From positions 1 through 56,929 of the forward strand of contig JBDRIB010000264.1 in NCBI GenBank assembly GCA_043816375.1: a stretch of DNA of 56,929 nt, read 5' to 3'. How positions within the stretch are numbered: the stretch's first letter is position 1; every line of letters begins with the position of its first letter. The translations under genes and the position numbers were made by a program. Under the pieces are notes generated by a model. The model had not been told where the DNA came from and searched no databases. It saw only the letters and a program-made list of their open reading frames with translations. Positions 49,099-49,442 of this stretch are shown here, one piece after another. This DNA is from Planctomycetota bacterium. Lineage in GTDB: Bacteria; Planctomycetota; B129-G9.

Positions 49099-49113
49099 GC
49101 AAAAGAAGTGCCT
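49099..49113 (-). promoter_or_regulatory. sigma54-type -24/-12 promoter element
   Basis: The minus strand reads AGGCAC-TTCTT-TTGCG, against the consensus TGGCAC-N5-TTGCW, with GG-N10-GC spacing. It lies about 50 nt upstream of the receiver-like gene start. Confidence 0.45.
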
Positions 49114-49269
49114 GCGAGAGGACTGTTGCCGTAACGTCCGTTAGTGACTTAAGTTGTTCGAATCGTGGCGAGGCAGAAAGCGTCCTTTGCCACGCTTGTG
49201 TTGCCATAATGACACCACCGAAGCCCTCGCAACGCCATTTTGGCACAACCTCTTCCACAATATTTCCCC

Positions 49270-49290
49270 TTTTAAGAACCGTTCTTAAAA
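49270..49290. promoter_or_regulatory. palindromic operator/UAS copy 1
   Basis: TTTTAAGAAC-C-GTTCTTAAAA, a perfect 21-bp palindrome centred at 49280. Confidence 0.7.
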
Positions 49291-49345
49291 CTGAATTCTC
49301 GCAACCCCTTTTGGATAAAGAAGAAAGGGATTTGGGGGCGCATAA

Positions 49346-49366
49346 TTTTAAGAACCGTTCTTAAAA
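49346..49366. promoter_or_regulatory. palindromic operator/UAS copy 2
   Basis: An identical TTTTAAGAACCGTTCTTAAAA centred at 49356, exactly 76 bp from copy 1. Confidence 0.7.
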
Positions 49367-49421
49367 ATTTGCGGCGTTACCACGATAACTTCCAGTCGTG
49401 TATGCGATAATGAAAATTCGG

Positions 49422-49442
49422 TTTTAAGAACGGTTCTTAAAA
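49422..49442. promoter_or_regulatory. palindromic operator/UAS copy 3
   Basis: TTTTAAGAAC-G-GTTCTTAAAA centred at 49432, exactly 76 bp from copy 2. Confidence 0.7.

Follow-up and report, generated by a model that had tools for sequence, protein, structure and literature searches.

REP sequences are short, hairpin-forming palindromes dispersed in extragenic DNA. Classical REPs are imperfect palindromes, and REPINs are doublets of them. In the GI-GIII REPINs of Pseudomonas fluorescens SBW25 the REPs are held at an exact spacing around a less conserved spacer, of which only the length and the hairpin matter (PMC3116915). Most catalogued REPs, those in the superfamilies of Di Nocera et al. 2013, carry an unpaired GTAG or CGTC tag at one foot of the hairpin (PMC3733652). 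In REPtrons, the gene for a Y1 HUH transposase (RAYT) is flanked by its cognate repeats, and a diverged homologue has a different cognate repeat. The locus described here places REP-like palindromes upstream of a groES-groEL operon, the operon type associated with HrcA/CIRCE control. We know of essentially no experimental characterisation of heat-shock regulation in Planctomycetota. The phylum is reported to use sigma-54, and sigma-54 promoters have been predicted at its chaperone genes, with enrichment at GroEL/GroES/IbpA/GrpE/DnaJ/DnaK; a prediction of sigma-54 control over chaperone genes likewise covers Bacteroidota (PMC12316311).

We analysed a window of 57 kb from one genome of an uncultured planctomycete, in which the module appears once; the other copies and the transposase discussed below were found on metagenomic contigs belonging to a close relative, in a different assembly. 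The intergenic spacer between rpe and the receiver gene spans 49049-49492 (444 bp), and it and the surrounding genes contain the following:

46583..48247, minus strand: groEL (Pfam Cpn60_TCP1), start taken at MPAKRILF..., nearest homologues Planctomycetota GroEL
48360..48650, minus strand: groES (Pfam Cpn10)
48674..49048, minus strand: receiver-only protein of 124 aa, first gene of the operon (Pfam Response_reg, 47 bits), GTG start
49266..49442, no strand: probable REP/REPIN-type element, CCCC plus palindrome 1, 55 bp, palindrome 2, 55 bp, palindrome 3; a layout without indels in 9 copies
49270..49290, no strand: palindrome 1, outer, TTTTAAGAAC-C-GTTCTTAAAA; with its CCCC flank an exact inverted repeat of palindrome 3 in most copies
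49346..49366, no strand: palindrome 2, central, whose centre base (C/G) sets the polarity of the element
49422..49442, no strand: palindrome 3, outer, on the rpe side, centre G
49440..49453, plus strand: 7 bp duplicated in tandem (AAATTTG/AAATTTG) at the element boundary facing rpe, single in the alignments of L003 and L084
49493..50230, minus strand: rpe, ribulose-phosphate 3-epimerase (Pfam Ribul_P_3_epim)

A first-pass annotation had reported three identical palindromes centred at 49280, 49356 and 49432, spaced by 76 bp, in the 444-bp spacer upstream of the minus-strand receiver, groES and groEL genes. Both the coordinates and a search with the palindrome core bear this out, and the gene positions agree. 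Each copy is a perfect 21-bp palindrome, TTTTAAGAAC-S-GTTCTTAAAA (its core can also be written TTAAGAAC-N-GTTCTTAA), which is A+T-rich, 10-N-10 in layout and asymmetric only at the centre base: the 21-mer TTTTAAGAACCGTTCTTAAAA occurs at 49270-49290 and 49346-49366, and TTTTAAGAACGGTTCTTAAAA at 49422-49442. With up to 3 mismatches allowed, the 17-mer core has its only 3 matches in the whole 56.9-kb window at these positions, against 0.11 expected, and three or more were obtained in 0 of 100 shuffles. The stop codon of rpe lies 51 bp from palindrome 3, which places the element in the rpe 3' flank. Slippage or a rearrangement footprint may be the origin of the 7-bp tandem duplication at that boundary.

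The architecture of this module of ~175 bp, three palindromes separated by two 55-bp spacers, resembles that of REPINs in that its outer units form inverted repeats and the spacing is exact (76 bp per unit here, 71 or 110 bp in SBW25), and in that a long hairpin can form in single-stranded DNA. The predicted fold of the single-stranded element is such a hairpin, in which palindromes 1 and 3 pair with each other (-45.9 kcal/mol, z = -8.5). Its stem consists mainly of the outer palindromes plus ~10 nt, since the symmetry between the spacers is weak; spacer 1 matches the reverse complement of spacer 2 at 21-26/55 ungapped positions, ~1-2 sd over shuffles, and we rejected a description of the element as one full-length palindrome. 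Unlike REPINs and classical REPs, the planctomycete unit comprises three repeats, not two, and is built from perfect, A+T-rich 10-N-10 palindromes. It also differs from the GTAG/CGTC-tagged superfamilies in lacking the tag: neither tetranucleotide is found consistently at the hairpin foot in the flanks of the copies, which carry CCCC on one side and a variable sequence (CGTAAA, CGCAAA, TCGTAT, CATAAT and others) on the other.

Two further classes of element were considered for the palindromes and set aside. A CRISPR array or mini-array does not fit, as the repeats always number exactly three and are only 21 bp long, spacers from separate loci share homology, the module is present at many loci and no cas genes are nearby. 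A LexA/Cheo-box-like GAAC/GTTC site was rejected on spacing, the half-sites being separated by N1 here and by N4 in sites of that kind.

A 19-mer scan of JGI metagenomes identified 8 contigs, from sample Ga0233415, on which the palindrome recurs every 76 bp, always in the same palindrome-55-palindrome-55-palindrome layout. Contig L084 corresponds to the locus of the window (92.3% identity), and the remaining contigs have a second repeat family in common with the window. Across the 8 contigs the module occupies at least nine unrelated intergenic sites, with each of the nine copies placed between ORFs or at the end of a gene. Their contexts include:

between convergent MatE and rubrerythrin genes
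at the rmlD 3' end
downstream of an HDAC-family gene
upstream of flagellin
upstream of a cytidine deaminase gene
between an ECF sigma gene and a TIM-barrel gene

The 27 palindromes in these copies contain 7 mismatches in 540 positions (98.7% identity, counted by eye), whereas the spacers are only 38-69% identical (42-76/110) and yet show zero indels across the 9 copies, with several positions conserved. This is again the pattern of REPINs, in which a spacer less conserved than the repeats is kept at fixed length. Near-perfect palindromes beside diverged spacers imply selection or conversion acting on the palindromes; a DNA-binding host protein could give the same pattern of conservation. Beyond this relative, a scan of 185,579 GTDB representative genomes for TTTAAGAACNGTTCTTAAA returned single matches only, 25 of them spread over unrelated taxa and at chance level, and since the window's lineage is not represented there, no regulon can be defined from those genomes.

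The module is also found on both sides of a gene encoding a 221-aa Y1 HUH transposase (L078:832-1497 and L092:111-776), an arrangement seen in two independent samples. The protein matches Pfam Y1_Tnp at 42.7 bits (cutoff 23), and its motifs NHVH and RYIDQNP fit the class-2 TnpA-REP signatures tabulated in PMC6006769. A phmmer search of PDB with the transposase alone gave spurious low-complexity matches to protein A; the profile and structure searches were informative. In the profile search, the best PDB match was 4er8_A, TnpArep of E. coli (E 3e-8), ahead of ISDra2/IS608, and the same entry was the best Foldseek match of the AlphaFold model (pLDDT 93.7; E 5e-8, TM 0.71), again ahead of ISDra2/IS608. 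It differs from described RAYTs in that it scores below the NCBIfam equivalog cutoff (43.8 bits against REP_Tyr_transpos, for which the cutoff is 80). Contig L093 encodes a homologue, 61% identical, that has another palindrome around it: TAATTAGACCTGSTTTAATTA occurs twice before the gene and three times after it, repeating every 66-67 bp. Judged from these sequences, this is the pattern of RAYT/REP co-variation, and a Y1 HUH gene flanked by cognate repeats, together with a diverged homologue that has its own, is what characterises a REPtron. The two module copies around the transposase gene start in direct, not inverted, orientation. A family-2 glycosyltransferase gene lies upstream of the transposase gene in both L078 and L093, but the two proteins share only 32% identity, so we claim no synteny between these loci.

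Comparison of orthologous operons separates the palindromes from groESL. A homologue search with the receiver protein returned only two near-identical proteins, and GroEL was used instead as the query for distant comparison. The palindromes are absent from the receiver-groES-groEL loci L030, L036 and L095, in which GroEL is 79-84% identical and the operon and its promoter are kept; the exact empty site is undefinable because the intergenic DNA of these relatives is too diverged to align. In the 92%-identical relative (L003/L004/L084) the module is present at the same site and is inverted with respect to the window. The reverse complement of window spacer 2 matches L003 spacer 1 at 45/55 positions and that of window spacer 1 matches L003 spacer 2 at 40/55, while the flanks are co-linear at ~92-93%. 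The conservation among relatives that the first-pass annotation had proposed as a check on its operator holds for the close relative, apart from orientation, and fails at the three more distant loci. As the spacers are 18-27% diverged between the two orientations and each assembly contains a single orientation, the inversion is old and does not represent an ongoing switch.

Several lines of evidence thus bear on what the palindromes are, and we consider it very probable that they are the three REP units of a single non-autonomous mobile element of ~175 bp, of the REPIN/BIME type, and not an operator of groESL. The element would belong to a REP-type family dispersed between the genes of this planctomycete lineage and probably mobilised by a cognate RAYT of the Y1 HUH class, encoded elsewhere and itself flanked by the same elements as a REPtron. 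By analogy with TnpA-REP and the IS200/IS605 enzymes, the transposase would recognise the palindrome hairpins in single-stranded DNA, and we propose that this recognition keeps the 21-mers and the 76-bp register near-perfect while the spacers drift. The simplest cause of the inversion in the 92% relative would be recombination between the outer palindromes, which we propose because these are exact inverted repeats of each other.

If the palindromes do not control groESL, the sequences between them and the operon become of interest:

49098..49113, minus strand: sigma-54-type -24/-12 element AGGCAC-TTCTT-TTGCG, 51 nt before the receiver GTG and 167 bp from the nearest palindrome centre
49202..49214, minus strand: proximal candidate enhancer (UAS) site TGTCATTATGGCA, centre 96 bp upstream of the -24 GG
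49233..49245, minus strand: distal candidate enhancer (UAS) site TGCCAAAATGGCG, centre 127 bp upstream of the -24 GG

The first-pass annotation had noted the minus-strand AGGCAC-N5-TTGCG and its sigma-54 geometry, and both observations stand: the element runs from 49113 to 49098, and GG-N10-GC is invariant in five receiver-groESL loci (the window, L003, L030, L036 and L095), with other promoter positions varying among them (AGGCAC/CGGCAT/TGGTAC/GGGCAC followed by TTGCG/T/A). A match to TGGCAC-N5-TTGCW with up to 2 mismatches is not significant in a single sequence (23 matches in the window compared with 24.9 expected) and the -24/-12 match is therefore not rare by itself; the promoter call rests on conservation. 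A scan of the spacer for sigma-70 promoters gave one sigma-70-like site, which overlaps the start codon. A perfect TGGCAC-N5-TTGCT lies upstream of another gene in the window, at 55801..55786.

An enhancer-type layout, which had been read into the palindromes, does exist at this promoter, in the form of a pair of TGYCA-N3-TGGCR dyads; the comparison does not support the palindromes as the enhancer. The dyad has only 2 matches in the window (0.48 expected), both of them the candidate UAS sites, and all five loci keep the pair, with the distal dyad 120-135 bp and the proximal dyad about 95 bp (96, 96, 94, 96 and 86 bp) upstream of -24. The pair fits the ~80-150 bp at which upstream activator sites lie from a promoter, and the sequence comparison makes it a likely candidate for the enhancer of the groESL promoter; the three TTAAGAAC palindromes do not qualify as such sites, not being conserved with the promoter. 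The arrangement is like that of NtrC/glnAp2-type systems, with GG-N10-GC ~50 nt before the first gene and an upstream dyad pair. It differs from described sigma-54/EBP systems in that the operon opens with a receiver-only protein that has Glu in place of the phospho-acceptor Asp and E-P in place of the acidic pair. In an alignment of the receivers from the window, L003, L030 and L036, the motif is LMELYLPD in the window and L003, the same Asp-to-Glu change is present in L030, and L036 keeps D; L095, outside the alignment, also has the change as read by eye from its DNA.

The conserved sigma-54 promoter at 49113..49098 most likely drives the operon, and the activator would be a putative enhancer-binding protein acting on the two TGYCA-N3-TGGCR sites, ~96 and 127 bp upstream of -24; expression would then depend on sigma-54 and this protein and may be subject to heat-shock control. 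No EBP (GAFTGA) or RpoN-box protein signatures are encoded in the window. As the first-pass annotation had also reported, CIRCE (TTAGCACTC-N9-GAGTGCTAA) is absent, with 0 matches at up to 3 mismatches anywhere in the window. The operon is of the type that HrcA/CIRCE controls, groES-groEL, but the palindrome upstream of it differs from CIRCE in its 1-nt centre in place of N9, in its sequence and in not being specific to chaperone genes.

The alternative that motivated the analysis is that the three phased palindromes are EBP upstream activating sequences for the sigma-54 groESL promoter, a new heat-shock operator in place of HrcA/CIRCE. It is true that a conserved -24/-12 element follows the palindromes at 167-319 bp, that they are perfect dyads kept in the 92% relative and that CIRCE is missing, but their distribution largely refutes this reading. 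The three distant loci have the promoter and the other site pair and no palindromes. The identical module is also found between convergently transcribed genes, at the 3' ends of genes and on either side of a transposase gene; no chaperone gene occurs in any of the at least nine other contexts, which speaks against a chaperone regulon motif, and no consistent sigma-54-like promoter accompanies the other copies. The block can also be inverted with its flanks unchanged. We regard an operator function as very unlikely. Somewhat less unlikely, though still improbable, is an exapted role, in which a REP-type repeat is bound, at this site and perhaps more widely, by a host protein of the architectural kind (such as IHF/HU or gyrase), as in E. 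coli BIMEs, and serves as rpe terminator, mRNA stabiliser, insulator or modulator of DNA looping at the sigma-54 promoter. Such a role would suit its position, 51 bp beyond the rpe stop codon and immediately before the candidate enhancer sites; the strict 76-bp register and the conserved spacer positions suggest constraint beyond the hairpins, and in E. coli, according to references listed in PMC6006769, IHF and gyrase bind BIMEs, which also stabilise mRNA. Against this, the hairpins are A+T-rich, without a G+C stem plus T-run, and a terminator scan of the rpe/receiver spacer found none at the palindromes; moreover, the orthologous operons work without the element, and its orientation at the site is not conserved.

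Two other explanations take the outer palindromes as their starting point. With their CCCC/GGGG flanks these form perfect 25-bp terminal inverted repeats, as would be expected of a MITE of another, DDE-type transposon, and the window has 7 bp duplicated in tandem at one boundary. On that view the module would lie beside the Y1 gene by coincidence, which is hard to reconcile with the presence of the module on both sides of that gene in two independent samples and with the diverged Y1 homologue likewise being flanked by its own, different palindromes. The 7-bp duplication is one-sided and absent from other copies, and we saw no consistent target-site duplication, so that a MITE of this kind is highly improbable. 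The other possibility is a programmed invertible switch (a Hin-type system was considered and rejected), in which a site-specific recombinase flips the 152-bp segment between the outer palindromes and thereby changes the expression of the neighbouring genes. Both orientations are indeed found at the same locus, in the window and in L003, L004 and L084, and exact inverted repeats bound the segment. However, there is no adjacent recombinase gene, the sigma-54 promoter and candidate enhancer sites lie outside the segment, a promoter scan found nothing inside it, and the symmetric layout leaves the palindromes at identical positions in either orientation. A single orientation per assembly and spacers 18-27% diverged likewise indicate an old inversion, and we give a programmed switch almost no credence, less than any other explanation.

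Returning to the REP-type element beside a sigma-54 promoter, we tentatively suggest a joint interpretation that goes further and that is possible rather than probable. In this planctomycete clade groESL may have dispensed with HrcA/CIRCE in favour of a sigma-54 promoter with a new TGYCA-N3-TGGCR enhancer (at ~-120 and -150) and a putative EBP, with the Asp-to-Glu receiver perhaps providing phosphorylation-independent feedback or partner-switching; separately, the tagless, A+T-rich palindrome triplet in a strict 76-bp register might constitute a distinct class of RAYT repeat.

REP/RAYT is a known kind of system, and the planctomycete element is very probably a further member of it that lies next to a plausible sigma-54 groESL promoter. 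Read in this way, a false lead is removed, in that the phased dyads beside a chaperonin promoter would be a selfish or domesticated repeat and not a new heat-shock operator. A Planctomycetota REPtron, consisting of a transposase and its cognate repeats, would be added to those described, with an unusual triplet and an in-situ inversion between close relatives that may be of use to REPIN population biology. The regulatory question moves to testable sequences, namely the sigma-54 promoter, the two TGYCA-N3-TGGCR sites and the Asp-to-Glu receiver in the groESL operon.

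The first-pass annotation described the locus correctly: the sequence carries three palindromes spaced 76 bp centre to centre in both intervals, and gene calls place rpe, the receiver gene, groES and groEL all on the minus strand, with the palindromes in a 444-bp spacer. The homologues of this GroEL are from Planctomycetota. A search of the window with the 17-mer core, allowing up to three mismatches, found no further matches beyond the three palindromes (0.11 expected).

Features of the receiver-groESL locus in the window
46583-48247, minus: groEL
48360-48650, minus: groES
48674-49048, minus: receiver-only protein
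49113..49098, minus: -24/-12 element AGGCAC-TTCTT-TTGCG, 51 nt before the GTG start
49202-49214: proximal dyad, TGTCATTATGGCA
49233-49245: distal dyad, TGCCAAAATGGCG
49270-49290: palindrome 1, centre 49280, TTTTAAGAACCGTTCTTAAAA
49346-49366: palindrome 2, centre 49356, TTTTAAGAACCGTTCTTAAAA again
49422-49442: palindrome 3, centre 49432, TTTTAAGAACGGTTCTTAAAA
49493-50230, minus: rpe

The three palindromes are very probably one copy of a REP/REPIN-type element, a reading built on architecture and dispersal, association with a transposase, absence from relatives at 79-84% identity, inversion in situ, and conservation of the promoter and dyads. An exact scan of GTDB representative genomes for TTTAAGAACNGTTCTTAAA returned 25 single matches scattered over unrelated taxa, as many as chance would give, and a scan of JGI metagenomes returned 47 similar singletons together with eight contigs that keep the 76-bp register, all eight from one sample, Ga0233415. 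One of these contigs (L084) represents the locus of the window itself, with 92.3% identity, and the remaining ones carry the window's second repeat family and thus belong to the same lineage. Among the 47 is a contig (L081) with two unrelated matches 5.4 kb apart, where an identical 33-mer, TCGCTTCTTTAAGAACTGTTCTTAAAAATCTAA, occurs at 4835-4867 and 10205-10237 (copies 5370 bp apart); this pair, which has no connection with the planctomycete repeat, probably reflects a segment duplication or the two ends of some other element.

Every complete copy reads (CCC)C-palindrome, 55 bp, palindrome, 55 bp, palindrome-GGG. The left palindrome is always centred on C and the right on G, so that the outer palindromes are exact inverted repeats, and the element's polarity is set by the base at the centre of the middle one. 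Neither spacer has an indel across nine copies, which share 42-76 of 110 spacer positions, and by our count 7 of 540 positions are mismatched in their 27 palindromes. Folded as single-stranded DNA, the window element forms a long hairpin pairing palindrome 1 with palindrome 3 (-45.9 kcal/mol, z = -8.5), while palindrome 2 makes a small hairpin of its own. Copies elsewhere lie in varied settings.

Genomic contexts of other copies
L085: between the convergent genes for MatE and rubrerythrin, 3' to both
L053: overlapping the rmlD stop codon
L041: downstream of a histone-deacetylase-family gene
L087: between the 3' end of an alpha/beta-hydrolase gene and the 5' end of a flagellin gene
L074: between divergent ECF-sigma and xylose-isomerase-like TIM-barrel genes
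L065: upstream of cytidine deaminase

What the search recovered is a dispersed repeat, with no chaperone gene beside any copy other than that at the groESL locus. Within 450 bp of each copy, a search for GG-N10-GC found a good promoter at the groESL locus only. A heat-shock or sigma-54 enhancer would not be distributed in this way.

On one contig (L078) a 221-aa ORF (832-1497) comes after a complete element, and another element starts immediately downstream of the ORF. Its Pfam match is Y1_Tnp (IS200-like), with 42.7 bits (gathering cutoff 23), and its only NCBIfam match is REP_Tyr_transpos at 43.8 bits, under the equivalog cutoff of 80. A contig from another sample (L092) holds a 99%-identical transposase copy with an element on each side, the downstream one a complete triplet. 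When a profile of 28 transposase homologues was compared with the PDB it matched 4er8 (E 3e-8), the structure of E. coli TnpA-REP in complex with a REP hairpin, with ISDra2 and IS200 transposases lower; Foldseek with an AlphaFold model (pLDDT 93.7) gave the same ranking (4er8_A, E 5e-8, TM 0.71). The HUH motif NHVH and tyrosine motif RYIDQNP match the class-2 TnpA-REP signatures of Quentin et al. and disagree with those of the planctomycete-rich class 3 (YV..EQ) (PMC6006769). A 61%-identical homologue on two contigs is bordered by another repeat, TAATTAGACCTGSTTTAATTA, which alternates in orientation and has a period of 66-67 bp, two copies preceding the gene and three following it (L093 1006-1098 and 1833-1991; identical in L094). 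This is the array logic of the window element in another sequence and period. Since the two sets of genes are bordered by different repeats, each transposase has its own flanking repeat, as in the REPtron/RAYT-REPIN systems (PMC6006769). By analogy with TnpA-REP and IS608, the Y1 enzyme would mobilise the element through single-stranded hairpins.

In the close relative L003 (fragment L004), whose receiver protein is 96% identical to the window's, the three palindromes, their 76-bp period and the promoter are all kept, and the segment between the outer palindromes is inverted. The reverse complement of window spacer 2 matches L003 spacer 1 at 45 of 55 positions and that of window spacer 1 matches L003 spacer 2 at 40 of 55, while comparing the spacers in the same orientation gives background values; the flanks align co-linearly with ~92-93% identity. 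Because the layout is symmetric, inversion still puts a palindrome at all three positions. It may have arisen by recombination between the outer palindromes. At the rpe-side edge the window carries a 7-bp tandem duplication, AAATTTG AAATTTG (49440-49453), which L003 and L084 lack, and both carry the element in the opposite orientation; the duplication may be a rearrangement footprint or simple slippage.

The sigma-54-type promoter proposed upstream of the operon fares better than the palindromes. Three distant loci have receiver-groES-(hsp20)-groEL, namely L030 (GroEL 84% identical), L036 (79%) and L095 (79%), and none contains a match to TAAGAAC-N-GTTCTTA. GG-N10-GC is invariant in all three, with the remaining promoter positions differing (CGGCAT-N5-TTGCT, TGGTAC-N5-TTGCA and GGGCAC-N5-TTGCT). 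The TGYCA-N3-TGGCR dyad pair, whose two members are the only matches in the 57-kb window (0.48 expected), is also kept, its proximal dyad lying 94, 96 and 86 bp upstream of the -24 GG versus 96 bp in the window and L003. The TTAAGAAC palindromes are not retained in the distant loci, which leaves the -24/-12 element and its TGYCA dyads as conserved promoter and enhancer candidates. The spacer of L030 measures 284 bp versus 444 bp in the window, which fits the addition of a ~175-bp block, the intergenic DNA being too diverged for an exact empty site. By eye, no clear promoter equivalent was seen in L031, L032 or L035, which have groES-hsp20-groEL without a receiver gene.

The reported absence of CIRCE agrees with our scan of the window, which finds no CIRCE-like sequence, and no EBP or RpoN gene is encoded in the window. 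A perfect TGGCAC-N5-TTGCT (TGGCACACCTGTTGCT) lies at 55801..55786 (minus), ~90 nt upstream of a gene with GGDEF and HD-GYP domains (54066-55697, minus), which suggests that the organism employs sigma-54 for a c-di-GMP signalling gene. A 2025 survey found that, in Planctomycetota, predicted sigma-54 promoters are enriched at GroEL, GroES, IbpA, GrpE, DnaJ and DnaK genes (PMC12316311), so that the promoter at groESL is plausible but already anticipated. We infer that the receiver-groESL operon is sigma-54/EBP dependent.

In the receiver heading the operon, Glu replaces the phospho-acceptor Asp (..ALMELYLPD..) and E-P replaces the acidic pair; an alignment of receiver proteins shows this for the window, L003 and L030, and the DNA, read by eye, shows it for L095. 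The protein resembles a pseudo-receiver that acts independently of phosphorylation; the deeper relative L036 retains DDD and Asp (receiver genes: L030 1558-1926; L095 2517-2909; L036 3218-3619). Several relatives have an hsp20 (small heat-shock protein) gene between groES and groEL (L031 780-1190; L032 3398-3838; L034 129-569; L095 3324-3764) that the window operon lacks, so operon composition varies within the clade.

The first-pass view of the palindromes as an operator, in effect an EBP enhancer of the groESL promoter, is dropped as very improbable, since they are missing from the 79-84% relatives and dispersed at non-chaperone sites. An exapted architectural, terminator or insulator role is unlikely, a terminator scan giving no match at the palindromes. 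The inversion might recall a programmed invertible switch, which we regard as the least probable reading: no recombinase gene lies nearby, no promoter lies inside the segment, the outcome is symmetric in either orientation and the spacers diverge by 18-27% between the two forms, all of which points to an old, fixed event. A MITE of another transposon, for which the one-sided 7-bp duplication is the sole support, is about as improbable as the enhancer. A CRISPR-like array was rejected: the repeats are always three, the spacers are homologous between loci and cas genes are absent. As a REP/REPIN-type copy, the element would be neutral for groESL expression.

A second intergenic repeat family is more abundant in the window, forming ~70-210-bp mosaics of several G+C-rich palindromes (GGTGACAGTCACC, GGGGACTGTCCCC, GGACCTGTTC...GAACAGGTCC) joined by AATCTACGAA-like linkers. 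Its copies (5635-5712, 6971-7019, 16730-16941, 20168-20245, 25692-25895, 27619-27694, 38876-38945, 39078-39267, 42600-42904, 42980-43053 and 50212-50387) are 77-94% identical among themselves, and the family also occurs on relatives' contigs (L003, L053, L074, L085, L092 and L032). With one copy located between rpe and gap, two different repeat families border rpe.

The window element resembles the REPINs of Bertels and Rainey: spacing is exact, the repeats are nearly perfect, and the spacers drift in sequence but keep their length; spacings in SBW25 are 71 and 110 bp (PMC3116915). REPs have been reported in Planctomycetes on the basis of GTAG or CGTC tags (PMC3733652), whereas the flanks of the window-type element have neither, and the triplet form is unusual among known REP/RAYT systems. 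The palindromes add a planctomycete system to a kind already known, and what remains new is the candidate enhancer TGYCA-N3-TGGCR, the Asp-to-Glu receiver heading groESL and the triplet repeat architecture.
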